A DNA stretch of 64,000 bases. Source: a virus. A program made the position numbers and the translations under genes. Below, piece by piece: positions 7,998 through 60,691 of this stretch; within the stretch, counting starts at the first letter, position 1, and each line of letters begins with the position of its first letter. The stretch spans positions 32,001 through 96,000 of the IMG/VR virus record IMGVR_UViG_3300044614_002617. The stretch is one strand, 5' to 3'. The notes beneath the pieces are model-generated. The model was not told the origin of the DNA. It searched no databases and was given only the letters and a program-made list of their open reading frames with translations.

Positions 7998-8239
7998 TCA
8001 GACTACTACTGTTACTACTATTGGTTGGTTGTGCAACTGCTCCAAAGCCAAAACAGCCAGACTTGTGTGCAACTGTTTATGACCCTCATCTTTGCCTTAT
8101 TACTATTGACAGCACGACATTTGCCGCCCATGGCAGTAATCGTTGTGTTGCTGTTAGAAAGTTAAAAAAAACACTCGAAGAAAGAAACCACAATCCACTA
8201 ATAGTAGAAAAAGCGGAATGCGGAAGAGTCCATGAATAA
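7994..8239 (+). CDS. Putative lipoprotein
   Basis: MIRLLLLLLLVG-C lipobox; Cys-rich mature part. Confidence 0.65.
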   Translation: MIRLLLLLLLVGCATAPKPKQPDLCATVYDPHLCLITIDSTTFAAHGSNRCVAVRKLKKTLEERNHNPLIVEKAECGRVHE

Positions 8240-8417
8240 TCTTTTGCAATTACAGAAAATTTATGATTTGGCAGTTGAGCTGTTCGGCGATAAAAAAACA
8301 GCAAATGAGTGGTTAAATACGCCAAATCATTTATTTTTTGATAAAACGCCGCTTGAGTATGCTCATAGTGTAAACGCTCAGAGTGTTATTGATACGTTGT
8401 TGGAAATGATGTTGTAA
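8232..8417 (+). CDS. Stand-alone Xre/MbcA/ParS antitoxin C-terminal domain (DUF2384-like)
   Basis: AVELFGD...A.EWLNTPN..F...TPLEY signature; no HTH domain and no adjacent RES toxin. Confidence 0.75.
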   Translation: MNNLLQLQKIYDLAVELFGDKKTANEWLNTPNHLFFDKTPLEYAHSVNAQSVIDTLLEMML

Positions 8418-10264: not shown

Positions 10265-10532
10265 CAAAATCATTGATGAAATCCTTGATGAATTCGATTT
10301 TGAAAGAGTCCACAAGGTCATGAAGGCACTCAACTGGACTTGGCACGATACAGACGGCGTACCTACCATCGGCGACCTACGACGACAGGCAAGGACACTG
10401 CTGCAGGAACTGCTCAAGCACAACTACTACTGCACAGGTACGGGCGGGCTGTTTGCCTACAGAATAGCCGATACTGTGGGACTGCGATTTGAGGTCACTA
10501 GTTATGAAGTGGAAAAGGATTTGTCGGTATGA
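10257..10532 (+). CDS. Hypothetical phage protein
   Basis: 91-aa ORF in overlapping-gene run. Confidence 0.6.
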   Translation: MNNKIIDEILDEFDFERVHKVMKALNWTWHDTDGVPTIGDLRRQARTLLQELLKHNYYCTGTGGLFAYRIADTVGLRFEVTSYEVEKDLSV

Positions 10533-10825
10533 AAGTCTACATCATCTGCTTCGACGGTGACCACATCTGTCATCCCACGGCATTTCTTGACCGAGAGAAG
10601 GCAGAGGAGCGTCTCAGAATTATGCAAGACGAGATGGATGCGGACGCAGATAAACATCAATGCAAGAGTTATTCGCAATGGTACTCGGTGGAGGAGTTAG
10701 AAATGGAACGCCCCATTAAGTTGAGCACCGAAGGTACTTTGAAGTTCCTTGAAATGCTAGACGGACAGGCTGAACCAAACGAAAACCTCAGAAAGGCTGC
10801 ATTGGAATCAGAAGACGCAACTTAA
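10529..10825 (+). CDS. Hypothetical protein with DUF1778 (TacA/AtaR)-like C-terminal segment
   Basis: C-terminal IKLSTEG..KFLEMLD...EPNENLRKA resembles I.LS.E....F...LD.P..PN..L..A. Confidence 0.5.
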   Translation: MKVYIICFDGDHICHPTAFLDREKAEERLRIMQDEMDADADKHQCKSYSQWYSVEELEMERPIKLSTEGTLKFLEMLDGQAEPNENLRKAALESEDAT

Positions 10826-12105: not shown

Positions 12106-12298
12106 AGCGATTGAAAAACTAAAGTCGAGTAACCCAAGCGATCGCGAAGATGGGGTATGGGTTCTCTATGTGAACTCATTACATTGTTATAAAACCTTAA
12201 AATATCACGCGGAGCGCGAAGCAGACTGGAAACTAAAAGACTTACTAAATAAAATGCTAAGCGATTTTAGGATTTTGCATGAAAAAGAAAACAGTTAA
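12092..12298 (+). CDS. Hypothetical protein
   Basis: Overlapping ORF in operon. Confidence 0.5.
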   Translation: MKTHEAIEKLKSSNPSDREDGVWVLYVNSLHCYKTLKYHAEREADWKLKDLLNKMLSDFRILHEKENS

Positions 12299-13415
12299 AA
12301 ATATTAAACCAGTTTTAAAAACAATACAACATCTCAAGTTTATTAAGCAACTTGAGAAAAACGGCAATTTAGCTTACCAAATAGTCGCTGACAGGATGAT
12401 TGATGATATTGTAAGTTATCTTAAGTCAGAAAAGCTCGCTAAAGCCGAAGACTCTCACAATATTCCAAAAAATTGGACAAAGCTAGTTCCTCGTATTCAA
12501 ATCAATGTAAACAATACACTTGGTCCAATTATTGAAAAATATATGCTTGCTCTTAAGTATGCGCTATTGGGTAAGGCCGCCGGGCAAGATGCCGAAAATG
12601 CCGTTGAAGAGCTAGGACTAAAAACATATTTACCAAAAGGGCTGCTGTTTCAAGGTTTTTTTGACGCGGTGGACACTCAGTCCGATTACTTTTCCAAGGC
12701 TCTAAAGTTACCTAAAATCAAGACAGATGCATCTAAAGATCCTTTTATCGAGTATACTTTTAGGTTCATCAAAGAAAAGACGGCAAGACATCTCGATAAA
12801 ACGCTTGTCGAAATGAAGACCAAAGCCTTAACCGCAATTGAACAGGTTATCACAGAACACAACCATGAAAATACCTCAAATGTTCATCGGGTTGCCAACC
12901 AACTTGCATCTGAGCTAACAGAAACGAAGAAAAAACGCGAAGCCGTTCATGATGCTGTCAAAGCGGTTGCTGAGCATAAGCTCAGTTTGACCAAAGCAAA
13001 GCAGACCCTTAAAGATACTTTTAAAGACTATTCAACAAACTGGGACTTGGTTGTTAGAACCGAGGTAGGCATGGCATCGGCCACAGCAACAAGCCAAGCA
13101 ATCATGAATTTAGCCGGCTCTAAAGACAAGGATGTAATTGTTACTATCGTTTCGATTGAAGACGATAGGGTGTCTGAAGAGTGTAAGAATTGGTCAAGAA
13201 ACGACGACGGCTCTCTGAAATACTTTAGGCTTACATCTTTAAGGCCAGCAGGCTATAATTTGGGAAAAAAGAAAGCACAATGGGAAAACTGTCAACCACT
13301 GCGCCATTTTAGATGTCGTTGTACTTTGGTATACGTTCCAAGGGGTTACAAAGTGGATAGCTTTGGTTCGTTGGTAAAATTAGCCGAGGGCGAAGAAATT
13401 AAACTAGAGCGTTAA
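12279..13415 (+). CDS. MuF/SPP1 gp7-like minor head morphogenesis protein
   Basis: W.LVVRTE..., D.RV...C, PLRHFRCRCTL (HPxCRC-like) C-terminal motif. Confidence 0.7.
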   Translation: MKKKTVKNIKPVLKTIQHLKFIKQLEKNGNLAYQIVADRMIDDIVSYLKSEKLAKAEDSHNIPKNWTKLVPRIQINVNNTLGPIIEKYMLALKYALLGKAAGQDAENAVEELGLKTYLPKGLLFQGFFDAVDTQSDYFSKALKLPKIKTDASKDPFIEYTFRFIKEKTARHLDKTLVEMKTKALTAIEQVITEHNHENTSNVHRVANQLASELTETKKKREAVHDAVKAVAEHKLSLTKAKQTLKDTFKDYSTNWDLVVRTEVGMASATATSQAIMNLAGSKDKDVIVTIVSIEDDRVSEECKNWSRNDDGSLKYFRLTSLRPAGYNLGKKKAQWENCQPLRHFRCRCTLVYVPRGYKVDSFGSLVKLAEGEEIKLER

Positions 13416-16754: not shown

Positions 16755-17537
16755 ATGGGACTAAAAGTCTTTGGATTGGGTGCAGTACAATCAGTCGATA
16801 AACAAGGCGAACTGATTGAAATTGCTAATATTGATACATCCAATCTACGTATGATTACAGACGAGCATAATTCTGACCAAAAGGGAGCTTGGTGTATTGT
16901 TGGCGGGATTACTGCCCACAAAAAGATTATGTCTGAAAAAGACTGCGAAACTCCCCGTCAAAAGAAGTGCTGGGACTTGGTAAAAGTTCCATATCTTTAT
17001 GTTGAAGGAGAACTCGCCGATGGACACCCTAACGCTGACGCCGCTGCTGCTCTTATCCGGTACACTGCTGCTAATCCTGATATTCCCCTAAAGATCGGTA
17101 TGTCAATTGAAGGGCTTATCTTGAAACGCGGTGGCCCAGAGGGCTCTGCCGAGCATAAAGTCATCAAGCAATCTTCTGCGGACGCTATCGCTATTACGGC
17201 CAAACCCTGTAATCCACAGGCCCAAATGTTTCCAATGAACGATCTTATGAAATCTTCGATTGAGCCTCCCCCTGCAGAATATCTACAGAAGTTCATGAAG
17301 TCCGAAGGGGCTACCGAGTCGTTTAAACACCGCCCAGAAATTCGTCTTCAGCAGAAGCTCCAAGAGTTGAAAAAATCTTTGGAAGATGTTTTAAAAGGTG
17401 GTACATGCTCTGTTAAGTGCTGGAACTGTGGTGACACTGAGCGCATGTTCAAAGCATCGAGAGAGTGGAGCAATCGTTGCAAAAAATGCGGAGATGCTCG
17501 TAGTATGAAAGACATCTGGAACGCTTTAAACCAATAA
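16755..17537 (+). CDS. Prohead (capsid maturation) protease with C-terminal Zn ribbon
   Basis: VDKQGELI, DEH, LYVEGEL, GMSIEG, AITAKPCNP (HK97/U35-type); CWNC...CKKC. Confidence 0.75.
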   Translation: MGLKVFGLGAVQSVDKQGELIEIANIDTSNLRMITDEHNSDQKGAWCIVGGITAHKKIMSEKDCETPRQKKCWDLVKVPYLYVEGELADGHPNADAAAALIRYTAANPDIPLKIGMSIEGLILKRGGPEGSAEHKVIKQSSADAIAITAKPCNPQAQMFPMNDLMKSSIEPPPAEYLQKFMKSEGATESFKHRPEIRLQQKLQELKKSLEDVLKGGTCSVKCWNCGDTERMFKASREWSNRCKKCGDARSMKDIWNALNQ

Positions 17538-18959: not shown

Positions 18960-21900
18960 ATGTCTGAAATTTTACACAAAGACTTGATTGGCGAAGACAT
19001 TCACGAGTTGCGTATTGCGATTGGATCGTCTGCCCCTTCTTCTATGCCTTTGTTTGTCGGGCAGGGATATTACGATATTGTCAATAAAAAGTTTTATGTT
19101 TCGCAAGGAACGGCTACAATTTCTGATTGGGTTACCACGGAAATCCCTCCCTTTTTAGCATTTATGGATACAAGGACTATTACTTGGACTTCTAATACAG
19201 CTGGAAATCAAATCACTTACAGCGCAAATGTTGAAGAGGCTGAGCTAATCCTTACATCTGAAAATGTTACTGATTTTTCAAATGCTGTTTTGACTATTCC
19301 TCAAATTGTTTCCTTGTTGGCGGATCAACACACTCGTTTGATTATGAGAACCGGCGGCGAACCTCAGCCAACTGTTTGGAATCCTGTTTATTTCAATGGT
19401 CTAGAGCTCGATAGCGATTCTCAAAAAATCAGATTGTCACAAGATTTGTCGGATATTGGTACTCCTACTTTTAATGAAGTGACGCTTACTGTTAGAGCAA
19501 AAACCCCTATCCTAACTTTGACTCCGGATGGTGTGCCCGCTTCCGCATCGCTTTATCTTGATGCTGATAAAGGCATGGTTGCAAGAGGATACGCTGGTTC
19601 AACGTCTAGCTTTACGCTTCAGAACGAGGCTGGCACGGACGTACTTAACAATCCGGTTGGTTCTAATCAACTAATCGCCCCCTCGCTAGCGGCTGGAGCT
19701 GGAGCGTCGGGCGTGGTGCATTCCAACGCAAACGGTCTTTTAAGTGCATCTAAAATTGTCGATGCAGACGTTGATGCTGCAGCGGCAATTCAGGGAACCA
19801 AAATCGTCCCTGATTTTGGAAGTCAAGATATTACGACAACTGGCAGTATTTTTGTTGATACAATTGAATCGAATACTGATGATATTGGTATTTTGACAGG
19901 AAACGCAAACAAAAATATTTCGATTGGTACAGGCTCTGGATACAATACAATTACGCTTGGCGGCATAAACTCTACCGTTAATATCTCAGGAGCAACATAC
20001 ACCACTCCAATTGAGTATGTCTCTGAAGATAAAAACATTGTCGTAAACTTTAATGCATCTGGCCAGGATTCGCAGGACTCAGGCGTTTATGTTCAAGAAG
20101 AATACGCCGGTGCTCATATTGATTTGTTGGATGTCACCTGGCAATCTGGAAATACAGTTAGATATGCAGTTGACGGAGCCGGAAGCGGAGTTGATGGGCT
20201 TACTGCCGGCGAATATATTCGTGTTACTGGTTTTGTAAACAGTCAAAATAATGGAACTTTTAAGGCACTTACGGTAGATCCTGCATATATTGATGCCATT
20301 AACCCTAAAAGAACTGATGCCTCATTAGACGAAACCGGAGTTGCTGCTTCAAGCGCAGCTCGTTTGTTGCTAAACGGATATGTTCATGTGGGCTCTACTC
20401 GCATGAGCTGGGAAGTTCGAGCGCCTGCTCACTTGGGAATTATTGAACTAAAACCACAAGCAGTTGCAAAAACATTACTTTTAACTAGCGAATCCGCAGA
20501 CAACGTAACCGTTAAATTTAATACAAATTTGACGATTGATCAAGATTTGCAAAAAACCTCGGCGGTTGAGTTTTCTGAACTAACGGTTTCTGATTTAACT
20601 ACGGGCGTTCTGCATGCCGATGTGGACGGCAAGGTCTCTTCATCTTTGATTGTTAATGCCGATGTTGACGGTGCGGCTGCAATTGCAGGAACTAAAATTG
20701 TTCCTGACTTTGGAAGCCAAGATATTACAACGACTGGGCACTCTTCTTCTGCAAGTGTAAAAATTACCGGCACTGAACCAGTTGGAGGAGCTAATTTATT
20801 TTCTAGCCCCTCTAATGGATTAGTAGTTAGGGGAATTGCAGGAACAGGTTCTCAATTTAAATTTATAAGTGATTTGGGTGTAAATTTAGTAACAATTTCA
20901 GACACATCTGTTACTCTACATAACTTAACAAGTGGCCTAGTTAAATCATCCGCAGGTGTACTGTCGTCTTCCTTGCTTGTTGATGCCGATGTTGATGCAG
21001 CGGCTAATATTCAGGGCAGTAAGATTGAAGCGGCTAGTGCAACAAATGCGGGCGCCGTTACTACATCTTCGCAGTCATTTTCTGGAGATAAAACATTTAC
21101 CGGAAGCTTAACTTTTTCTAGTTTTGCTACGGCGGGAGTCGTTCATAACGATGAATACGGTTTGTTGTCTACATCGTTAATAATGAACGCCGACGTTGAT
21201 CCAATGGCAGCGATTTCTGCTTCTAAAATCGCCAATCAGCCAGCAGGAAACATTGCAGCCACGGACGTTCAAAGTGCGATCAATGAGATTGACACGGACA
21301 AAGTAGCAAAAGCCGGCGATAGTATGACCGGCAACCTATCCTTTTCCTCAAATTTTGGAATTGAGTCATCAGCCGCCTTAAGCACTTTAAATGTTGGTAC
21401 CGCTCCAAACACTTCTGTTCTTAATTTAGGAACAGGAAGCTCAACGAATGTGATTAATTTGGGAACGGGCTCTGGCGTAACCACAATTAATATTGGTGGC
21501 GCAGGCGATACAATTAATATTACGGGCACCCTAAACAGCGTTAATGTTACAGACATGGATGTAACTGATAAAAATATTACGCTCAATAAACAAGGGGCAC
21601 TAGCATCCGGAGACGGCGCCGGCCTTAATATTGAAGAAAATGCAGTTATTGCTGGATATGCTAAAGTTATAAACAGCCGAACAAGTTGGGGCTTTAAAGC
21701 GCCAGCAAATCAAGGAGAAGTTCAATTAACACCACCCGTTGGCTCATATATTGCAGAATTTAAGATCCCCGCATTAACAGCGTCGGCAGTTTATACGTTC
21801 CCCGCCGCAACCGACACCTTGGTTGGCCGAAATAGCACTGATAGTTTGTCTAACAAAACTCTTCTTGATCCGATTATTGATCAGATTAGTCCGTACAACG

Positions 21901-23867
21901 TAGATAAAACACTAAAAATTAACAGTACGGCAGCATTAAAAATTCCTGCTGGAACCGACGCACAGCGAGCTGCGTTTACTGCAGAAGACGGAATGGTTAG
22001 GTACAATACAACAAGTAATTTTTTTGAAGGTCATTCAGGCGGCGGGTGGTCACCGCTAAGCGGAGGAAAGGTTGTTACCGTATCTTCTTTTACTACTTTA
22101 TCTAATGAAATTAGATATTTAACAAACACATTTGCGGCACCGTTTGCGGTTACCTTGCCATTTGGCGTTTTAAATTCAAGAATTGAAATCAAAGATTCTA
22201 CATATACATGGAAAAACAACAACCTAACTGTTATCCCTGCATCGGGGCAAAGGATCGATGGGTTTGCGATCGATGAGCATTTAGTTTGCGATGTTGACGG
22301 TGGATGGATTACCCTAGATTGGGATTCTGCTAACTCTCGATGGAATCTTTCAACCAACGCAATTGTTGACCTAAACGACACATACGCGACTGAGAGTTAT
22401 GCCGGTATTGTTAGCACAGGGATTCAAACTTTTGCAGGCACAAAGACTTTTAACGATGGAATTGTGCTAAAAACAAATACAACTCCTGCGATTGCTCCCG
22501 CAGATGGGATTCAGGTTTACGCCAAAAATGATAACAAACTATACACGCTTAACTCTTTGGGTATTGAGCAGGCGGTTGGTTCCGGCGGATCTGTACTGTC
22601 TATTTCTCAAGCCGCACATGGTTTTACATTTAACGATATCGGTCGTCCCTTGTATCTTAACGGTTCAGTATATGCTTTTGCGCAAGCTGATACTGAAGCA
22701 AAAGCCGAAGTTGCTGCTCTGCTTAGTCGCGTTGTTGATGTTGATAATTTTGAAATTTGTCTTGGCGGGGAAGTGTCACCAGTTGGCGCAAACTTGATCG
22801 TCGGTGGCGGCGCTCTTACACCCGGAGAAGTGTATTTCCTCTCCGCATCCGAAGCTGGTAAGATTTCAACTACTCCACCTTCTGTTGTAGGTCAAATTTC
22901 CAAGCCCGTTGGTATTGCCCGAACTACGACTGAGCTTGATTTCTTCAATATGACCGGTTCTACAGTTGGCGGCACAAACGTATACACGCAGATTGGCCTT
23001 ACTAATAACGCGGTTACAACCATTCAAAATGCTTCGGCTTATGACAGCGTTGAGCTTTCTGGTTGGGTTTATGTTAACGCAACTGTTAAATATCGTTTTG
23101 CTATCAAAGTTCAGGTAACTAAAAAGGGCGATAATACTAATTATTTGGTAAGCTTCCAACATTCCGGTGACACTCCACCGTCTGGATTTGACGTTGACGC
23201 TACGGCGGCTGGTCTTGTGCAAGTCACATTACCCTCAATTGCCGGATTCACGTCTGCAGTTATTCAGTTTAATCTAAATGGCCCTGCGGTTGGCGCTAGC
23301 TTGCCGTTGCAAATCGAATCAACTAATGTAAGTTTTAGTACGGTACAGGCTAAAGATAGTACCGGTATTGCCTTTAAAAATTCATCCGGAACCACGGTCG
23401 CAACCTTAAATAATAGCGGCCATTTACTTTTGCCAAAAATTCCAGCGTTTTATGCATGGCGGCCTGGTGGCAATCAATCGACTTTAACGGGTGCGTTTGG
23501 AACGATTGCGCCCGTATTTAACACAACAAGAGTAAATGTTGATAACTGTTATAACACAACAAATGGTCGTTTTACCGCACCAGTTGCGGGTATTTATGAA
23601 TTCCAGTTTGGCATTACCGCAAGATGGGTGTCTGCGGTAGGAAATCTAGAACCAACATTCTATGTAGATGGTTCAAATGTTTCACCCAGAGGTTGTGGAT
23701 ATACAACATTAACTGCGGTTCAAGACCACGACTTTATGCATGTTTATGTAATGGTATCGCTCAATGCCGGACAATACGTTCAGTGCGGAATTCATGCTTG
23801 CTCCGCAGGTGTTGATTACTACTATGGTGAAAATTTAGCGTATTTTTCTGGTAAATTAATAGGTTAA
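18960..23867 (+). CDS. Giant tail fibre/adhesin with C-terminal C1q-like domain
   Basis: 1635 aa; repeated SS.IVxADVDxxAAI.GxKI motifs; C-terminal PAFYA...FNT...N...YNTTNGRFTAPVAGIYEF...FSGKLIG. Confidence 0.8.
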   Translation: MSEILHKDLIGEDIHELRIAIGSSAPSSMPLFVGQGYYDIVNKKFYVSQGTATISDWVTTEIPPFLAFMDTRTITWTSNTAGNQITYSANVEEAELILTSENVTDFSNAVLTIPQIVSLLADQHTRLIMRTGGEPQPTVWNPVYFNGLELDSDSQKIRLSQDLSDIGTPTFNEVTLTVRAKTPILTLTPDGVPASASLYLDADKGMVARGYAGSTSSFTLQNEAGTDVLNNPVGSNQLIAPSLAAGAGASGVVHSNANGLLSASKIVDADVDAAAAIQGTKIVPDFGSQDITTTGSIFVDTIESNTDDIGILTGNANKNISIGTGSGYNTITLGGINSTVNISGATYTTPIEYVSEDKNIVVNFNASGQDSQDSGVYVQEEYAGAHIDLLDVTWQSGNTVRYAVDGAGSGVDGLTAGEYIRVTGFVNSQNNGTFKALTVDPAYIDAINPKRTDASLDETGVAASSAARLLLNGYVHVGSTRMSWEVRAPAHLGIIELKPQAVAKTLLLTSESADNVTVKFNTNLTIDQDLQKTSAVEFSELTVSDLTTGVLHADVDGKVSSSLIVNADVDGAAAIAGTKIVPDFGSQDITTTGHSSSASVKITGTEPVGGANLFSSPSNGLVVRGIAGTGSQFKFISDLGVNLVTISDTSVTLHNLTSGLVKSSAGVLSSSLLVDADVDAAANIQGSKIEAASATNAGAVTTSSQSFSGDKTFTGSLTFSSFATAGVVHNDEYGLLSTSLIMNADVDPMAAISASKIANQPAGNIAATDVQSAINEIDTDKVAKAGDSMTGNLSFSSNFGIESSAALSTLNVGTAPNTSVLNLGTGSSTNVINLGTGSGVTTINIGGAGDTINITGTLNSVNVTDMDVTDKNITLNKQGALASGDGAGLNIEENAVIAGYAKVINSRTSWGFKAPANQGEVQLTPPVGSYIAEFKIPALTASAVYTFPAATDTLVGRNSTDSLSNKTLLDPIIDQISPYNVDKTLKINSTAALKIPAGTDAQRAAFTAEDGMVRYNTTSNFFEGHSGGGWSPLSGGKVVTVSSFTTLSNEIRYLTNTFAAPFAVTLPFGVLNSRIEIKDSTYTWKNNNLTVIPASGQRIDGFAIDEHLVCDVDGGWITLDWDSANSRWNLSTNAIVDLNDTYATESYAGIVSTGIQTFAGTKTFNDGIVLKTNTTPAIAPADGIQVYAKNDNKLYTLNSLGIEQAVGSGGSVLSISQAAHGFTFNDIGRPLYLNGSVYAFAQADTEAKAEVAALLSRVVDVDNFEICLGGEVSPVGANLIVGGGALTPGEVYFLSASEAGKISTTPPSVVGQISKPVGIARTTTELDFFNMTGSTVGGTNVYTQIGLTNNAVTTIQNASAYDSVELSGWVYVNATVKYRFAIKVQVTKKGDNTNYLVSFQHSGDTPPSGFDVDATAAGLVQVTLPSIAGFTSAVIQFNLNGPAVGASLPLQIESTNVSFSTVQAKDSTGIAFKNSSGTTVATLNNSGHLLLPKIPAFYAWRPGGNQSTLTGAFGTIAPVFNTTRVNVDNCYNTTNGRFTAPVAGIYEFQFGITARWVSAVGNLEPTFYVDGSNVSPRGCGYTTLTAVQDHDFMHVYVMVSLNAGQYVQCGIHACSAGVDYYYGENLAYFSGKLIG

Positions 23868-31858: not shown

Positions 31859-32398
31859 TTAAAAAAAGATTTCTTCAAACTCTTCATAATCTTTTTCAAA
31901 AATTCGCATAGTCTTATCTTTGTCAGAAATAGCTTTTAAGATGGGGGTTTTGCCCACATTATCTATTTCCGTAAAAATCCACTTAGTTCTGGTGGACTTA
32001 TGAAACAAAACAGAGCCGACAGAAAACGGAAGTTTTTTTGATTTTTCGGTCTTTTTTTCTTCGGAAGTATTAGTGCGCGAATCATCCACCCACCCCCAAT
32101 TTTGTTGTGATGAGGGAGGATATGTAGTGGTGTTTGTTTGAGTCTTGGTTGACAGGTCTATTTTAACTAAGCTCAAAGACACGGGGTCTTGATACTCAAC
32201 AGTCGTTATCCATGCGTCATAAGTGCATGGAATCAATCTTTTAATCATACTGTCGTGCACACTATACTGACTGTATGTTGGGTACAACATTGTAAAATTA
32301 TGACAATCTTTACTGTCTACCGTTCCATCCGCCTGCAGAACAAACGAAGAGATTTGGTCAAAATACATATCGCCTTGGTCTAGTGGTTTTGCAGCCAT
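31859..32398 (-). CDS. Hypothetical protein
   Basis: GGAG RBS, 179 aa. Confidence 0.55.
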   Translation of the reverse strand: MAAKPLDQGDMYFDQISSFVLQADGTVDSKDCHNFTMLYPTYSQYSVHDSMIKRLIPCTYDAWITTVEYQDPVSLSLVKIDLSTKTQTNTTTYPPSSQQNWGWVDDSRTNTSEEKKTEKSKKLPFSVGSVLFHKSTRTKWIFTEIDNVGKTPILKAISDKDKTMRIFEKDYEEFEEIFF

Positions 32399-52336: not shown

Positions 52337-53047
52337 ATGCAAAGTCTTAAGTCTTTACAAAAACAGCTTGAAAAGTTGCAGAAAGCAGAAAAATGCAGTA
52401 AAGACAATAATTTAAATAAAAAAGCTCTTTTAAAAAAATCTCTTAAGTCTTTGTTAGCTGAATACGAAAAGCTCAAAAAAGCTGAATATCTTAATAATAC
52501 ATATTATCCAGATCATGTTGACGCTGCTCGTAAAAAAGAACATCCTACTAAAAAACACCTAATTGGCCATTATGCTAAAAATGGCGAACCTACTTGGACT
52601 TATAACAAACATCTTGCATACGAGCAGGATGAAGGTCTTAAAAAGCTTATTGATGGTAAGCAAATATCTAAAGATGGTAAGCTTTTACCAAACAAATTAA
52701 ATTCCCTGTCTCAAGAAAATATTCAACTGCTAAGAGAGCATACACTGAGCACTCTATTAAAAGATCCCGATAGGCATGTTATGGCCGCAAACACAGACCC
52801 CTCAAAACCCAAAGACCATGCAGAAGTCAGAGTTAGACACCTTATTAATGCCTTGACAGGCTCTGATGGGTATGAGTTAAAAGATAGTCCTATGGGTGGC
52901 TTTGAAATTTATGCTCCGAGACATTCTGGCTCTGATAAGGCACAAGACATTGCAACTCGTTGGACTTTTCACCCTAATAAAAAAAGATTTAGGTCTGAAA
53001 GAATCTATCCGATAAGTGTGAGCGGAGGGGATGGCGATGGAAAATAA
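52337..53047 (+). CDS. Putative internal head protein with LxK[S/A]-rich leader
   Basis: LQKAE, LKKS and LKKAE within the first 50 aa. Confidence 0.55.
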   Translation: MQSLKSLQKQLEKLQKAEKCSKDNNLNKKALLKKSLKSLLAEYEKLKKAEYLNNTYYPDHVDAARKKEHPTKKHLIGHYAKNGEPTWTYNKHLAYEQDEGLKKLIDGKQISKDGKLLPNKLNSLSQENIQLLREHTLSTLLKDPDRHVMAANTDPSKPKDHAEVRVRHLINALTGSDGYELKDSPMGGFEIYAPRHSGSDKAQDIATRWTFHPNKKRFRSERIYPISVSGGDGDGK

Positions 53048-53219
53048 ACAAATAAGTCATGAAGAGCTGATTGCTCGCGGCTTAGATCCAGACCTTGGCA
53101 GACTTATTGAAGAAGCTGAGCCAATGAGAATAGACAGAATTGGTTGGCTTGAGAGTAAGATAATTAGTATGTCTCTTTTTGTAAAGATATGGGCAGTAAA
53201 GATTCGGAGATTTTTTTAA
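53031..53219 (+). CDS. Small hypothetical protein
   Basis: GGAGG RBS. Confidence 0.5.
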   Translation: MAMENKQISHEELIARGLDPDLGRLIEEAEPMRIDRIGWLESKIISMSLFVKIWAVKIRRFF

Positions 53220-53980
53220 TGTCAAATGATAAAAAAGAGCATCAAAACAAAAAATCTTTCAAAGCAACGCCCGCTGTACTGCAGGCATTACGGGCCATAA
53301 AGACAGCTATTTTAGAAAAAAGACCCGTTGTCCTCAACAAAACAAGAGGCACACTCAAATTTCCTAAAATCCTCCCCAAAGACACACGCCCAGAAGAAAA
53401 CGTCAAGCAAATTCCTAAAAACGAGCCTCATCAAGAAATGAAACCCCATGGTCTATGGGACGTACAACCTGCTAAACAACAATTCATTCAAGCAGCACTG
53501 ACCGGAGTCCCTCCTGAACAAAGATACAGAGGCGCTCAGCAAATTCAAGAAGCAATTCAAGGTGGTATGCTCGGAGCCTACACTCACAAAACCAAACAAG
53601 CTTTTGCTCTTGAGCCTGACTTTGCCGTCAAAGGACACGAAGCCATTCATGCCATGGTAGACAAGGCGGCTACTCATTTTGGGGTAGATGAAAAACAAGT
53701 CTACGAGCATCTTAATAGCTTAATCCATCCAGAAGACAAAGAAATCTTGGCCCATACCCTTAAGACTACCGGCTATCCCTCTCACGTTCACTATTCTGAA
53801 ATGGTGCCTTGGATTCATACCATCTTGCACAACAAGCCAGCTAGAGAATATTTCTTTAATTCTTTAAAGTTTTATAAGAATAACGTCGATGAGACAAAAC
53901 AGAGGCAGGCGGTTCAGCGTCTTGGTAGGACATGGAACGCTATTGTAAAAATGGGTAAAGAGCTAGACAAGTTACCATGA
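53219..53980 (+). CDS. HExxH zincin-like protein (putative internal head protein)
   Basis: GHEAIH followed by a downstream SE; start at 53219 with GGAG RBS. Confidence 0.55.
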   Translation: MSNDKKEHQNKKSFKATPAVLQALRAIKTAILEKRPVVLNKTRGTLKFPKILPKDTRPEENVKQIPKNEPHQEMKPHGLWDVQPAKQQFIQAALTGVPPEQRYRGAQQIQEAIQGGMLGAYTHKTKQAFALEPDFAVKGHEAIHAMVDKAATHFGVDEKQVYEHLNSLIHPEDKEILAHTLKTTGYPSHVHYSEMVPWIHTILHNKPAREYFFNSLKFYKNNVDETKQRQAVQRLGRTWNAIVKMGKELDKLP

Positions 53981-53987
53981 GGAAGTT

Positions 53988-54389
53988 ATGAGTACATTAA
54001 AGCGCGGCTATTTGAACTGCGCAACATATAAAAATAATTACACTTTTTATATTGGAGAAGGGTTCTTACAAGATTCTTTTTTACATCTTGCTGTAAACCC
54101 AAATCCTAGCCTATTGTTTGCTGAGATGTTGACTGAATGCAAATGGACTCCTTACAAGTCTTATGTTGAGATGTTGGTAACAATTAAAGAATTGCCGTCA
54201 AATAAAAATATTCTTAATGATTTCAACAAAATGACTACTGATTGTTATTTGAGGCACACGGTTGGTGACCAAGAATCTGTCTATCTACTCAAAAACAATG
54301 AGCTATTTTGTACAGAAGACTTACAAAAGCCAATCAAGTTAAATGAATTGATGTTTTTAGACGGCAAGTGGACAATTGTAAAATCATGA
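53988..54389 (+). CDS. Hypothetical protein
   Basis: GAGG RBS. Confidence 0.5.
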   Translation: MSTLKRGYLNCATYKNNYTFYIGEGFLQDSFLHLAVNPNPSLLFAEMLTECKWTPYKSYVEMLVTIKELPSNKNILNDFNKMTTDCYLRHTVGDQESVYLLKNNELFCTEDLQKPIKLNELMFLDGKWTIVKS

Positions 54390-54411
54390 TATTTGACTGA
54401 AAGGCGTCGTT

Positions 54412-57072
54412 GTGAAAACACTCAAAGACCTAACAGATAGAATTGCTGCAGAACACGGCTTGGAGTGGTACCAACCCCTTAATAAAGCTGAAGATTCTGC
54501 TGGCATGACAGCTATTCACTTGGGTAACGGTTATTCACTGCACCATGAGCATTCTGAAAACGGCCATGACATTTGGGCTGTTGGGTTTAATGGCGAGCGT
54601 GCTGGCACCTTCATGTTAAGAACAGAAGACACTCGCAGAGGCAAGCCAATGGTGGCTTGGGCTGGCTTAGAGAAGCCACATAGAGGTAAAGGAATTGGAA
54701 CTCTTGCCTATAAAGCGTTAGCTGTTCATTACGGGGGGCTAGACTCAGATAAAGCATCGTCATCCGATGAAGCTGTTAAGGCTTGGATAAGGGCTGGCGG
54801 GCGTCAAATGAAGATAAAAAGTCAATTTGGCAAGCCTCGATATACTTTGGATGGGGATAAAAAGAATCTACCTATTAAATGGAATGAAGATTTGATTAAG
54901 GGCTTTAAAAGCCAGTGGGGTGGCACTCTTCCCGACACAGACAATTCGCACGTCGAAAGAAATGAATGGTGGCACGGAACTCCATCGGGAAGATTTCCTC
55001 TTAATAATATTCACGTGGGCAGCAAGAAAGCCGCTCATGAAGCCTTAACCGCAACAATAGGGCATCCTGTTGAGGGCGAGTGGGATGGTACTAGAGAATA
55101 CGGAAAGACCTTACTGGCTGGCAAAAAAACCTTGGAAGCTAGAGGGATTTCTATTACCGGCTATTCAGCAGACGCTCCGCTTGAAGACCACTATCCCACG
55201 GGTAAAGCCAAGTATTCCGACGGAACACAAGTTTCTTCGTCGGAAAAACCTAATATGCTAAGATTCAAGATAAAAGGCAAAATGACCAGCCATCCGCATA
55301 CGCCGAGAACAGATATGGCCGCAAATGCAATAATGAAAAGAAAAGGTATAAAACAAGGAATTTATTATGTAAACGAGGGGGAAGACCCTGGCTCAATTAG
55401 CGCCGTTGTTCCTTCGGTAGAGCATTTAGAACAAATTAATAATTCTATTAAAAAATCCTCTGACCTTAACTCTCTCATCCAACAAGCCAAAACCCGTTTA
55501 GAAGGCGTCAAAAAGGTTGGCTCTCAAGAGTCACGCCCTATGATATTTGCCAACAAAGACGAAACAAAACATGGGTTTGTAACTGTAGACCCTTCTAAAA
55601 AAGGCCAATGGCGCGTCACTCATTTCGTCAAAGGCAAGCCCGCAGGTCATTCAGAAGCACCTACATTTAGCGATGCCATCAAAGTAGCTCATGAGTCAGG
55701 CTATAACGTCTTTAAAGAAATTCCTGAAGAGCAACTCTTTAAAGCAGAGTCTCTTGTTAAGGCTGCTCATCCGTCGGACCTTAAAAAGATGGTTAACAAA
55801 ACAAACCACGATGCTAAAGAAATTGTAGACGCCGCTCCTCATGCTGTTCACGCACCTGACCAAGAATATGTTAATTTTTTAAATGACCCAAAAGTTCAAA
55901 AAGGACTAGGAAGTAAAGACGTTGGTGGAATTTCAGCCAAGATGGTGCATAAAGTAGGCGATGAAACTTACATGGCTAAGCCTTACTATAAAAAAGTTGA
56001 GTCAGCTGCACGAGCAATAAATCCGCATCCGATTTCTGGTTGGGCTTCTATAGCTACTAAAAATCTTTATAATGCTGCAAATATTGGGCATTTATGTGAA
56101 GATGTATCTTTTCACGAGCATAACGGTATTCCCATGACTGTTCATAAGTTTGCCAAAAATGCTCATGAAGTTGGTGATCCTGGTTATGAGTATACCTTTC
56201 AAAACAGAATTAAAAATCCTAACATTGAAGCTCAAGGTAAAAAAATAGCAATTATGGATTTTTTAACAAATAATTTAGACCGCCATACCTCAAATATTAT
56301 GTTTCATCCAAATGAAAAAAAAACCGACCATAATCTTCTTGCTATTGACCACGAAAGAAGCTTTCAGTATAATAAAGGATGGGGCATCTTAGAGCCCCGT
56401 TATGCCGTTAACGAAAGACCTCGATCTTATTTCAATCATTCACTAGGGCTTAAGCCTTTTTCAATAAGTGACGAAACCGACTTACCTGAGCATCAAACAA
56501 CAAAGGCGTGGTGGCGAGCAAATAAAGATAATATATCAAATTCTTTTAATAAAGATATAGAAAGCATTAAAGACCCTTATCTTAAAAATCACATTAAAAC
56601 TAACTTTACAAAAAGATGGGAATGGCTTAATGAGCATTCTAATCCAGACCATTTTGATTTTTTTGATGCTGCCAATATCCCTGTTGAAATGACTAAGGAA
56701 CGTCTTCCAAAAACCGATTATCAAGCAATTATAAAAAACTTGCCTGATAATCCTTATAAGGCACTCGGCGTTATTGATGGTCTTTTTGCCAAAAAGCTAT
56801 CTTTTGCCACAAAAGAAACTTTGGTAGATCTTTGGGACCAACAAGTTGATAAGATGTCTGGAGAAGAAGTTGGTAACTATCTTAAGGATATTGAAAAAAC
56901 AAAAAATCATCCTCACCCCAAAGGCGCTTACGGGTCCTTAATGAACAGATTGGTTCAGGAAAATCATCAACAGGGAATACAGCATTTAGTACAAAATAAC
57001 ATAATAGATTCGCCATATTGGAAAGAAAAGTTTAAAGCAGTACTAAGATTAGGGGCACCAAAAAAACCATGA
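54412..57072 (+). CDS. Polyvalent protein: GNAT-like + ADP-ribosyltransferase-like + unknown + PI3/4K/HipA-like kinase domains
   Basis: GLEKPHRGKGIGTLAY; WHGT...HVGS..AA...YYVNEGED..S.S.VV; MAKP...DFLTNNLDRHTSNIM...AIDHERSF. Confidence 0.7.
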   Translation: MKTLKDLTDRIAAEHGLEWYQPLNKAEDSAGMTAIHLGNGYSLHHEHSENGHDIWAVGFNGERAGTFMLRTEDTRRGKPMVAWAGLEKPHRGKGIGTLAYKALAVHYGGLDSDKASSSDEAVKAWIRAGGRQMKIKSQFGKPRYTLDGDKKNLPIKWNEDLIKGFKSQWGGTLPDTDNSHVERNEWWHGTPSGRFPLNNIHVGSKKAAHEALTATIGHPVEGEWDGTREYGKTLLAGKKTLEARGISITGYSADAPLEDHYPTGKAKYSDGTQVSSSEKPNMLRFKIKGKMTSHPHTPRTDMAANAIMKRKGIKQGIYYVNEGEDPGSISAVVPSVEHLEQINNSIKKSSDLNSLIQQAKTRLEGVKKVGSQESRPMIFANKDETKHGFVTVDPSKKGQWRVTHFVKGKPAGHSEAPTFSDAIKVAHESGYNVFKEIPEEQLFKAESLVKAAHPSDLKKMVNKTNHDAKEIVDAAPHAVHAPDQEYVNFLNDPKVQKGLGSKDVGGISAKMVHKVGDETYMAKPYYKKVESAARAINPHPISGWASIATKNLYNAANIGHLCEDVSFHEHNGIPMTVHKFAKNAHEVGDPGYEYTFQNRIKNPNIEAQGKKIAIMDFLTNNLDRHTSNIMFHPNEKKTDHNLLAIDHERSFQYNKGWGILEPRYAVNERPRSYFNHSLGLKPFSISDETDLPEHQTTKAWWRANKDNISNSFNKDIESIKDPYLKNHIKTNFTKRWEWLNEHSNPDHFDFFDAANIPVEMTKERLPKTDYQAIIKNLPDNPYKALGVIDGLFAKKLSFATKETLVDLWDQQVDKMSGEEVGNYLKDIEKTKNHPHPKGAYGSLMNRLVQENHQQGIQHLVQNNIIDSPYWKEKFKAVLRLGAPKKP

Positions 57073-57734
57073 TTCTTCACATTAAGAGCCACGTGACTAG
57101 CTTTGAGTACTCAATTCCTGCAACTTATGAAGGAATTAAAAGCCTTTTTGATATGTTTCCTTTTGTAGAACAAATAGTTGCACACCATCATAATTTAAAT
57201 CAGGCTCTCGAAGAGATTGTCGAGTATCTTAGCTCTCACCATATGGATGCTTGGTTGTCAGCAGAAGCACCTCTTAAAAAATCAGAAGACAAAACCCGCG
57301 TAGCCTCTATTGTTGTCTGCAGTGGCGACAGGATGTTGATGCTTCAACGTAGAGATAACGACAAGTGGACATTCCCCGGTGGCCATTTGAACAACGGCGA
57401 GTCGTTTATTGACGGTGCTGTAAGAGAGTTGTTTGAAGAGGCAGGCATCAGAGCAAACCCAGATGAACTTATTCTTATGGGCGACAAACAGACTTTCCAA
57501 GGCAAGACTATCCATGTCTACCTATATAAAGTCAATAGCGAAATAGCAACTACAGCATCGAACGATCCAGACAAAGAAGCCAAACAATTCAAGTGGTTGC
57601 CACATATTTTACCAGAAGAAATTAAAGAAAACCTCTACATTCCTGTAGGAGACAACGCTTCTTTGAGTATGTTTATGAAGTATCTCTTAAGTCAGAAGAT
57701 TCAGGAGCTTAAAAGCAAAATAAATAAAGATTAA
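57069..57734 (+). CDS. Nudix hydrolase with N-terminal extension
   Basis: Complete Nudix box GHLNNGESFIDGAVRELFEEAGI; PLKKSED at the domain start. Confidence 0.9.
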   Translation: MILHIKSHVTSFEYSIPATYEGIKSLFDMFPFVEQIVAHHHNLNQALEEIVEYLSSHHMDAWLSAEAPLKKSEDKTRVASIVVCSGDRMLMLQRRDNDKWTFPGGHLNNGESFIDGAVRELFEEAGIRANPDELILMGDKQTFQGKTIHVYLYKVNSEIATTASNDPDKEAKQFKWLPHILPEEIKENLYIPVGDNASLSMFMKYLLSQKIQELKSKINKD

Positions 57735-57940
57735 TTTACATTTTCTTTATTATTGGGTTTGTTCTCAATGGCGCGAATTAATCTTGCCGCATAATGTCTG
57801 TGAAAGTCTTGATTTGTTTTGTTGGAAGGATTTTTTTCTAATTCATCTAAATAAGCCATCAAGATTAATTTAGCTACTCTATTATCTTCGCTAATTCTTC
57901 TTATAAGATTTTCGTCGATTTTATATTCTGTTTGGTTCAT
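57731..57940 (-). CDS. Hypothetical protein
   Basis: Coupled to 57937-58569. Confidence 0.5.
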   Translation of the reverse strand: MNQTEYKIDENLIRRISEDNRVAKLILMAYLDELEKNPSNKTNQDFHRHYAARLIRAIENKPNNKENVN

Positions 57941-58569
57941 CTTATTGATTTCTTTATATTTTCGTATTCTTCATCTTTGACGTGATAGTCCCCAGCGTTT
58001 GCCGACTTAATTTGCCTTGCTCCGTTAATATACCATTCTCCGCCATCGTCGGCAATTTTCTTAATTAGCTCTTCATATGTCATATACATTCTGGCTGCGC
58101 ACCTATTTAACAAACCATACTCTTGAGCATAACTTTTAATTCCTTGAATAAGCACCTCGGGGACTGTAGCCGTGGTTTTACTTCCAAAAACCAAATAATG
58201 ATGATGCACCATTAAAAGAGTATTGTCTCTAAAAACCCTAATAGTGCAGTGTTGATAAATCTCAAAAGCTGCACTGGCAGCAAAATCAGCAACGCAAATG
58301 GTTCTATAGCGAGACATCCTAGTAATAATGGCTTCGGCGGCATCAACATCTCCGCCATTGCTTGAAATATACATTAAAACTGTGTCGCCCGGCTTGGCAT
58401 CCTGAATGTGCTTATCAAACTGACTTACAGCCAGCCAATCAACATCAAAACTAAAATTAAATACTTTACTAGAACTTACTTGCATTTCTGCCAGCACTTC
58501 CGCTGGAATACTTGGAATGGGCTTTGTGCAAGCCATCAGAAGTATTAGTAAAAGTAAAAAATATTTCAT
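57937..58569 (-). CDS. ClpP-like (crotonase-fold) serine protease with lipoprotein signal
   Basis: LLILLMA-C lipobox; ISSNGGDV, AASAA, LMVHH. Confidence 0.75.
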   Translation of the reverse strand: MKYFLLLLILLMACTKPIPSIPAEVLAEMQVSSSKVFNFSFDVDWLAVSQFDKHIQDAKPGDTVLMYISSNGGDVDAAEAIITRMSRYRTICVADFAASAAFEIYQHCTIRVFRDNTLLMVHHHYLVFGSKTTATVPEVLIQGIKSYAQEYGLLNRCAARMYMTYEELIKKIADDGGEWYINGARQIKSANAGDYHVKDEEYENIKKSIR

Positions 58570-60103: not shown

Positions 60104-60691
60104 ATGGAAAAAAAAATTTTAGACTCAGCGCTTCCTCTGATCAAAGCCTATGAGGGTTGTCATCTTAAAGCATACAAATGTCCAGCGGGTGTTTGGACTA
60201 TTGGCTGGGGGCAAACTGGCAAAGATATTAAGGAAGGTGTTGTTTGGACTCAAGAACAGGCCGATGCTGCTTTGGAAAAAAGCGTTGCTGAGCTCACCAA
60301 GGGGGCTCTTGAGTTAATTAAAGTTCGCTTACGTCCAGAGCAGATTGGAGCCTTGGTGTCATTTGCCTATAACGTAGGACTTGGTGACCTTGCTAAGAGT
60401 ACTTTACTCAGACTTGTTAACGCTAAGGCCGATACAGAAGACATTGTTAAGCAGTTTCTTGTGTGGAACAAGGCAGGTGGCAAGCCACTTATGGGTTTAC
60501 TCTATAGGCGAGCTTCTGAAGCTCTTATGTTTAAGTCAGAAACCTTTAAAAGATTCAACTCTCTGGAGGAGATGGAACCTTACTTTGAAATTGAGCATGA
60601 ACTGTTGCCACCTAAACCGGTTACCCCAACCAAACCCAAGGCGGCCGCTACTCCAAAAACCAAATCATCAGCGCCCAAAAAGAAAGTTTAA
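60104..60691 (+). CDS. GH24 lysozyme (endolysin)
   Basis: IKAYEG..LKAYKCPAGVWTIGWG; ALVSFAYNVG; W.KAGGK.L.GL..RR..E. Confidence 0.92.
   Translation: MEKKILDSALPLIKAYEGCHLKAYKCPAGVWTIGWGQTGKDIKEGVVWTQEQADAALEKSVAELTKGALELIKVRLRPEQIGALVSFAYNVGLGDLAKSTLLRLVNAKADTEDIVKQFLVWNKAGGKPLMGLLYRRASEALMFKSETFKRFNSLEEMEPYFEIEHELLPPKPVTPTKPKAAATPKTKSSAPKKKV

Follow-up and report, generated by a model that had tools for sequence, protein, structure and literature searches.

Polyvalent proteins of phages were described by Iyer, Burroughs, Anand, de Souza and Aravind (Iyer et al. 2017; PMC5512222), and the concept includes GNAT acetyltransferase domains adjoining ADP-ribosyltransferase (ART) domains. Delivery of polyvalent proteins as full-length chains is known, for example for N4 vRNAP and TraC1/Sog (PMC5512222). 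Trimming of ejected proteins is known from other phages: the capsid-targeting sequences (CTS) of T4 and the propeptides of phiKZ and SPN3US are leaders on ejected proteins, and the prohead protease of these phages removes the leaders at a short consensus that is common to portal, protease and ejection proteins (PMC5694885). In HK97, the prohead protease gp4 cuts the capsid protein at K103/S104 (PMC10275583). Here, an open reading frame (ORF) of 886 amino acids (aa) was analysed that is located at positions 54412-57072 (+) of a 64,000-nucleotide stretch of viral DNA, hereafter called the window, which comprises positions 32,001 to 96,000 of the IMG/VR virus record IMGVR_UViG_3300044614_002617. 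The record is linear, has a length of 110 kb and is estimated to be 67% complete.

The 886-aa protein falls into the established class of polyvalent proteins, the modules being distributed over several genes in this phage, and the new point is a conserved Lys motif, [LIFM]-x-K-[ASGT], in the linkers between its modules. The best overall explanation, to which we assign a probability of about 0.6, is that of a late polyvalent effector which would be packaged into the virion, trimmed at the junction motifs and ejected. Like the polyvalent proteins described previously, the protein combines several unrelated effector-type enzyme domains in one phage polypeptide, with a GNAT beside an ART-type domain, and its modules show extensive shuffling, solo versions and links to MuF, portal and late genes (PMC5512222). 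It differs from them in that its ART-like module lies outside the described ART-PolyVal (H-Y-D) family, and in that its kinase module, with a match to PI3_PI4_kinase and PI4KIIalpha, has retained a helical C-lobe; the kinase described in that work is of the S/T/Y type and lacks a C-terminal subdomain, and neither PI3K nor HipA is mentioned there (PMC5512222). A further difference is that the 886-aa protein contains no peptidase domain in cis and carries the conserved Lys motif in its linkers.

Modular organisation of the 886-aa protein

The GTG start codon of the ORF takes the same place in the alignment as the ATG start codons of close relatives, whose N-termini read MK[RT]LKEL..., and a plausible ribosome binding site (RBS)-like aaagg is located 5′ of it, so that the reading frame given in the preliminary description of this DNA, which had been made from the sequence alone, was confirmed. 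An exhaustive phmmer search with the 886-aa protein against 1.84 billion cluster representatives yielded 693 hits, which form four independent blocks at residues ~19-166, ~171-350, ~350-445 and ~445-880, corresponding to modules A, B, C and D. BLAST breakpoints against close relatives of other architecture were found at residues 23, 163/164, 344/345 and 444-450. The motifs PLNKAED, DLIKGF, SIKKSSD and LFKAESLVKAAH, which the preliminary description had placed at the domain junctions, coincide exactly with these homology breakpoints and sit in linkers at true module boundaries. Disorder of the junctions was read from predicted models of the B/C and C/D junctions, and in the AlphaFold2 (AF2) models the predicted local distance difference test score (pLDDT) is <50 at residues 346-348 and 440-449. 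Searches with the whole protein against 50,697 phage records (tblastn), PHROGs and PDB sequences were empty, and profiles of module B and of residues 1-170 gave no genuine match among solved structures (for residues 1-170 a spurious hit to a repeat protein was obtained).

Module A is predicted to adopt a GNAT fold. The Pfam family Acetyltransf_1 (PF00583) scores 16.4 bits on this module, below the cut-off of 20.7 bits, and is passed by a relative (P0006; 24.7 bits) that is 93% identical over residues 1-164. The acetyl-CoA motif R91-G-K-G-I-G96 fits Q/R-x-x-G-x-G/A, and all 10 of 10 structural neighbours of residues ~26-168 in the ESM Atlas are GNATs, with template modelling (TM) scores of 0.55-0.63. 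Module C resembles small uncharacterised phage proteins and is predicted as a small alpha/beta domain; its folded core at residues ~377-428 was modelled with a pLDDT of 66-77, and no convincing structural match was found for it, the best one being MmoD (Z 6.7 over 55 aa).

Module D is predicted to be a type II PI4K/CtkA-like atypical kinase with an intact catalytic loop. It passes the Pfam family PI3_PI4_kinase (PF00454) marginally (27.2 bits vs a cut-off of 27.1), and this family is carried by many relatives. K523, the residues D623, R624, H625 and N628 of the D623-R-H-T-S-N628 loop (DRHxxN) and D646 show no or almost no variation among 59 homologues. The model of the module (pLDDT 89.8, predicted TM score 0.84) matches the fold of PI4KIIalpha with Z 19.0 (second score 18.1) over 258 aa at 3.4 Å, and Foldseek concurs (PI4KIIbeta, E 2e-4). 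Further structural neighbours are CtkA (Z 13.6), CotH, Fam20, HipA (11.8) and actin-fragmin kinase. The sequence profile of module D retrieved from the solved structures just hits to the catalytic loop of FAM20, at E values of at least 0.04. Shared with PI4KII, CtkA and HipA are the predicted fold, the DRHxxN loop and the Asp and Lys residues for metal and ATP binding, respectively. The identity to these kinases is ~11-13%, and the N-terminal helices and a helical extension of 120 aa at the C-terminus are found in the phage family only. In contrast to HipA, the protein has neither the HipA N-terminal domain nor a HipB partner. The preliminary description had named a GNAT domain with acetyl-CoA loop, a domain without assigned identity and a PI3/4K/HipA-like kinase in these parts of the protein, and it agrees with the present results in all of these points. 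Solo kinases of the family (P0026-P0048 and loci L003-L010) have a length of ~600 aa and consist of a conserved ~115-aa N-terminal module of their own, SDLxK[AKS] and the kinase core.

A predicted ART-like fold in module B

The family of module B is widespread, with ~50% identity, and occurs in proteins of up to 3,880 aa without Pfam annotation. Its consensus reads WHG[ST]...LHxG[ST]...WDGTREYGKTLLAGKK...YYxNxGEDxGSISAVVP, and the residues H188 (in WHGT), H201 (in HVGS) and Y319, N321, E324 and D325 (in YVNEGED) are invariant. The AF2 model has a pLDDT >90 across the domain, with H188 predicted on strand 1, H201 on strand 2 and E324/D325 before a strand. Via an all-against-all search, only ART-superfamily toxins were found as whole-domain PDB matches, namely VPA0770/RES, Xre-RES, ParT, MbcT and NatT, and these matches are weak (Z 4.5-5.1 over 102-116 residues). 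An independent model from the ESM Atlas led to ART-PolyVal, RES and PARP clusters, again with weak scores (TM 0.42-0.54), and a Foldseek search with a model of modules B and C against PDB or BFVD gave nothing at E<=0.001. In ARTs, the catalytic signature H-Y-[EDQ], R-S-E or H-H-h is distributed over strands 1, 2 and 5. The His-containing first strand predicted for module B (xWHG[ST]) resembles that of RES, MbcT, ParT, NatT and ART-PolyVal, and module B differs from them in the second signature position, which is His (LHxG[ST]) and not Tyr or Ser.

Membership of module B in the Pfam family ART-PolyVal (PF18760) was rejected: no hit was obtained at E<=1, both domains are found at different coordinates in the same proteins (P0055, P0065, P0087 and P0092), and hhalign of module B against ART-PolyVal aligned 14 columns, covering the first strand only, with a probability of 7.9%. 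With moderate confidence, module B is assigned an ART-like fold on the basis of its predicted structure. The ART-like domain that had been proposed before was retained as a predicted fold outside Pfam ART-PolyVal, and the motif residues picked there are the invariant ones.

Alternatively, module B could be a binding or scaffold domain whose likeness to ARTs is a distant structural echo, and the kinase could phosphorylate a lipid or small molecule instead of proteins. The weak fold scores (Z 4.5-5.1, TM ~0.5) and the short profile alignment with ART-PolyVal would agree with such a domain, and the nearest kinase structure, PI4KIIalpha, is a lipid kinase. We consider this alternative rather unlikely, because in two independent predicted models the whole module was covered only by ART-superfamily families, the invariant first-strand His fits the signature of ARTs and PARPs, the invariant acidic pair is located ahead of a strand as in ARTs, and the next structural neighbours of the kinase (CtkA, HipA, CotH and Fam20) are protein kinases.

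Two small ORFs with antitoxin-type domains were also observed in the window. An ORF of 61 aa at 8232-8417 (+) encodes a stand-alone Xre_MbcA_ParS_C domain (PF09722; 36.5 bits vs a cut-off of 24.5). This domain neutralises RES, MbcT and ParT toxins, and these are the toxin types whose folds are nearest to module B. A role of PF09722 as general partner of module B was rejected, since it is present in one of 41 other viral records with module B and in none of five records with the kinase family. An ORF of 98 aa at 10529-10825 (+) has a borderline match to TacA1 (20.7 bits vs a cut-off of 21); TacA is an antitoxin of GNAT toxins.

Module shuffling and the effector cassette

Among 213 retrieved proteins, 17 architectures were distinguished, the breakpoints of which are sharp and shared. 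The module orders found comprise A-B-C-D, A-C-D, A-x-C-D, A-x-C-ARTPolyVal-D, A-B-C-NUDIX, x-A-D and x-A-B-x. Solo forms of modules B and D are numerous, and the pairing of GNAT and kinase was seen again in distant proteins (P0022 and P0054). The neighbouring genes of the 886-aa ORF, coding for a 236-aa protein (up236), a 263-aa protein (up263) and a NUDIX protein, are separate genes here and fused modules in other phages. For instance, P0025 has the architecture up236-A-up263, P0008 up236-A-D, P0011 and P0013 up236-A-B-up263, and P0007 A-B-C-NUDIX, with NUDIX being fused into the polyvalent protein in the latter and in others. The 886-aa ORF is part of a late-gene effector cassette of 5.4 kb (52337-57734), and related phages carry the modules of this cassette fused or split in an interchangeable manner. 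The module shuffling, together with the fusion of the neighbouring genes elsewhere, identifies the protein as a member of the polyvalent class, and the concatenation of three enzyme-like modules and one without assigned identity that had been suggested for this ORF is borne out by the shuffled architectures and the neighbour fusions. For gene fusion and fission, the cassette is a clear natural experiment.

The stop codon TGA of the 886-aa ORF overlaps with the ATG of the NUDIX gene (ATGA). An A_AAA_AAA heptamer is located at 57060-57066, three codons before this stop codon, and the -1 frame enters the NUDIX ORF. Programmed -1 frameshifting into the NUDIX ORF was rejected, as the heptamer is not conserved beyond the closest relative: this relative has G_AAA_AAA at the site and more distant ones have an ordinary RBS, so that the frameshift is unsupported.

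A conserved Lys motif at the module junctions

A variant of [LIFM]-x-K-[ASGT] is present at every junction in every close relative (DLIKG, DLVKT, ELVKA, DLEKA, LLKAE, SLKKS, MFKAE and SLTKA). In the 886-aa protein, five of the six matches to [LIFM].K[ASG] are located at junctions. Among the non-redundant linkers between recognised modules, 12 of 18 contain the motif (17 occurrences), compared with 1.7±1.0 in length-matched intra-module controls and 2.6±1.4 in composition-preserving shuffles (maximum 8), none of 2000 of which reached 12. The motif is far commoner than composition accounts for. Of 626 homology-breakpoint clusters, 149 have the motif at a distance of at most 8 residues vs 51 expected, the clusters not being independent of each other, and conservation of the motif in the protein sequence extends down to ~30% identity. 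For the more stringent pattern [LIFM].K[AS]E[DG], four occurrences were observed in the phage proteome vs 0.58 expected, namely in the MuF-like ORF (residue 53), the protease-like ORF (residue 180), the 886-aa protein (residue 23) and the NUDIX ORF (residue 69). The junction motif is lineage-specific and statistically real.

The motif also closes a leader on separate genes. The NUDIX gene begins with a 65-aa leader that ends in LKKSED, and this leader is independent of the payload: in nine other phage loci the same leader is found on the gene directly after the kinase gene, with a payload unrelated to NUDIX, and in all nine loci as well as in the NUDIX gene it ends in [LI]-x-K-[SAG]. In the fused protein P0007, PLSKAEPLQKSED is found ahead of the NUDIX fold. 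In the loci L003-L010, the gene after the kinase gene codes for ~350 aa, with a hydrophobic Ala/Gly/Leu-rich stretch following the motif and then a payload without assigned identity; in these loci the kinase gene and the leader-bearing gene always overlap or abut.

Contextual links to the capsid and a candidate prohead protease

Genes for a portal protein, tail fibres, virion structural proteins, a helicase and a lysozyme are present in the record. Upstream of the effector cassette, tail-fibre and virion genes are located on the same strand, and downstream of the 886-aa ORF the NUDIX gene and the lysozyme gene follow. In other phages, module B is fused to the portal protein (P0066; Phage_portal_3, 1.7e-103) and is fused to or adjoins Phage_Mu_F (P0052), which supports a capsid location. 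In a distant phage (L003), a solo kinase gene is located three genes after a head maturation protease gene (phrog_94, 6e-31) and immediately ahead of a gene for a virion structural protein. These links are contextual. We give packaging of the 886-aa protein into the virion and its ejection a slightly better than even chance.

A cytoplasmic enzyme, made late or early and never packaged, would be a different solution; acting in the producing cell, it would for example modify host or phage proteins while replication or assembly takes place, or counter defence. Precedents for non-packaged modifying enzymes exist in T4 ModA/ModB and T7 Gp0.7, the 886-aa protein itself contains no MuF or portal domain, and the antitoxin-like binder domains of the phage could regulate toxin-like enzymes inside the cell. 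Such a role appears improbable given that the gene closes the same-strand block of virion genes, that homologues of its modules are found in fusion with portal and MuF, that the kinase gene of a distant relative lies within a head module, and that the partner gene is built as leader plus motif.

For a packaged and trimmed effector, a close comparison is offered by T4 Alt and the other internal proteins of T4 and by the ejection proteins of phiKZ and SPN3US, whose consensus is distributed in the same manner as the motif described here (PMC5694885, PMC10052503). Like the CTS of T4 and the propeptides of phiKZ, the motif, a pattern defined post hoc, is a short consensus common to head-core-like proteins and putative cargo, and the linkers that carry it are disordered in the models. 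In contrast, the motifs of T4, phiKZ and SPN3US end in Glu (L/I-x-E; S/A/G-x-E), whereas the conserved residue here is Lys, and the putative sites here would part several enzymes of one chain, following a polyprotein logic. No sequence homology exists between the 886-aa protein and T4 Alt or the ejection proteins of phiKZ and SPN3US; the comparison with Alt that had been drawn before is one of mechanism only. With the HK97 gp4 site, the motif would share the Lys at P1, the small residue at P1′ and the unstructured segment, a likeness of site pattern only, and in contrast to HK97 the candidate protease of this phage (ORF 16755, Table 1) is without detectable similarity to a named Pfam protease family.

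Two ClpP-like ORFs were additionally detected at 57937-58569 (-) and ~63661-64617 (-) (PF00574, 24 and 57 bits, respectively). The former starts with MKYFLLLLILLMAC..., a lipoprotein-type signal that is unusual for a ClpP-like protein, and is unlikely to be the head protease.

Proposed route of effector delivery

According to the explanation favoured here, the effector proteins would be made late in infection and loaded into the prohead. The phage maturation protease would then trim the exposed [LIFM]-x-K-[ASGT] junctions with Lys at P1, comparable to K103/S104 of HK97, and the effectors would be ejected together with the DNA. Host targets would thereby be acetylated, ADP-ribosylated (or NAD+ consumed) and phosphorylated early in infection. 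Module B would act as NAD+-utilising ART-like fold, module C may be adaptor-like, and the NUDIX partner would process nucleotide-diphosphate products. The domain identities were derived from sequence and predicted fold; the enzymatic activities and host targets are putative. A site of the maturation protease would best explain the motif, and cleavage at the motif is possible, with a chance somewhat short of even. More tentatively still, the phage lineage may package a true polyprotein of injected effectors, in which a Lys-P1 maturation protease would cut [LIFM]-x-K-[ASGT] as a universal joint. Cutting at this joint would remove payload-independent capsid-targeting leaders and split the chain into its individual enzymes (GNAT, ART-like, kinase, NUDIX and others). 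Gene fusion and gene fission would then be selectively equivalent, which would explain the free shuffling of effector cassettes.

Several observations weigh against the proposed route. Profile searches found no sequence-level link of module B to any ART family, and its match to the ART fold is weak (Z ~5). ORF 16755, which had been taken for the protease in the preliminary description, is weakly protease-like by its PHROG match (phrog_1028, 7.6e-7) and its 37% identity to a protein of phage Mx1; it has no Pfam hit, and the assignment as protease is weak. Searches of the ~67% complete record with PHROGs and Pfam revealed no major capsid protein. As the motif pattern was defined post hoc and the tested linkers originate from related proteins, the statistics given above are supportive and not independent proof. 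Moreover, the motif is absent from the linkers of the more distant polyvalent lineages P0185, P0126, P0161 and P0087. Finally, a conserved copy, SDLKK at residues 454-458, is located inside a helix of the kinase module that was modelled as confidently folded, so that part of the motif pattern could be structural.

The copy in the folded helix also agrees with the main rival to a protease site, in which the polyvalent protein would remain one uncleaved multi-domain chain, packaged or not, and the motif would be a conserved linker, a helix cap or a recombination joint. Full-length delivery as known for N4 vRNAP and TraC1/Sog (PMC5512222) would be in line with this, as would the presence of an own motif copy at the edge of every module, which recombination in conserved joints would yield. 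We nevertheless regard an uncleaved chain as rather unlikely: the motif is conserved to ~30% identity and closes the leader on separate genes, where a domain joint is not needed, it is present as well in the portal, the MuF-like and the protease-like ORF, and the models show disorder at the junctions and no helical caps.

Polyvalent proteins form a recognised effector arsenal of phages of which hardly anything has been characterised, and the locus holds two large families without Pfam annotation as such. The ART-like module occurs in hundreds of polyvalent proteins, fusions to portal and MuF among them, and the PI4KII/CtkA-like kinase family is frequent in large uncultured phages. The Lys-P1 junction motif provides a concrete and cheaply testable hypothesis for the processing of polyvalent proteins. 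If the motif is a protease site, packaged cargo and mature boundaries would be predictable from metagenomic sequence, including that of uncultured phages; if it is not, the 886-aa protein would be an ordinary new member of the polyvalent class.

Features of the locus

The coordinates of the 886-aa ORF, its modules and junctions, and the related genes are summarised in Table 1.

Table 1. Positions of the polyvalent effector ORF, its segments and associated genes in the window. Residue (res) numbers refer to the respective protein.
Feature	Position	Strand	Remarks
Portal protein, 665 aa	4312..6309	+	KSED at res 629-632, near the C-terminus
MuF/SPP1-gp7-like minor head protein, candidate	12279..13415	+	TIGR01641 E 0.0025, below threshold; Bacillus phage Nachito 'minor capsid protein' 3e-5; LAKAED at res 53-58
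Prohead protease, candidate	16755..17537	+	phrog_1028 7.6e-7; 37% identity to putative prohead protease of Myxococcus phage Mx1; FMKSEG at res 180-185
236-aa gene (up236)	52337..53047	+	internal module of P0008, P0025, P0027 and P0013; LQKAE and LKKAE near the N-terminus
263-aa gene (up263)	53189..53980	+	C-terminal module of P0011, P0013 and P0025
Polyvalent effector ORF, 886 aa	54412..57072	+	GTG start; ATGA overlap with next gene
N-terminal leader, res 1-22	54412..54477	+	precedes junction motif 1; homology to internal module A copies starts at res ~19-23 in many relatives
Junction motif 1, L23-N-K25-A26 (in LNKAED)	54478..54489	+	
Module A, predicted GNAT fold, res ~29-160	54496..54891	+	RGKGIG acetyl-CoA motif at res 91-96
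Junction motif 2, L161-I-K163-G164	54892..54903	+	breakpoint 163/164 in P0004-P0006, P0014 and P0015
Module B, predicted ART-superfamily-like fold, res 175-344	54934..55443	+	invariant H188, H201, Y319, N321, E324, D325
Junction motif 3, I346-K-K348-S349	55447..55458	+	breakpoint 344/345; pLDDT <50 at res 346-348
Module C, predicted small alpha/beta domain, res 352-440	55465..55731	+	folded core ~377-428
Junction motifs 4 and 5, L442-F-K444-A445 and L448-V-K450-A451	55735..55764	+	breakpoints 444-450; pLDDT <50 at res 440-449
Module D, kinase core, res 478-763 (module D overall 452-886)	55843..56700	+	predicted type II PI4K/CtkA-like
Module D, helical C-terminal extension, res 764-886	56701..57069	+	conserved with the kinase in relatives
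NUDIX gene	57069..57734	+	coupled translationally to the 886-aa ORF; 65-68-aa leader; L69-K-K71-S72 (LKKSED); NUDIX fold at res 76-179

The phage lysozyme gene is located at 60104-60691 (+) (PF00959, 4e-40), so that tail-fibre block and lysis gene flank the effector cassette. Two very large ORFs were also observed, one of 2,332 aa (genome C1:6890-13888, outside the window) and one of 1,635 aa (window positions 18960-23867), the PHROG matches of the latter being tail-protein-like only.

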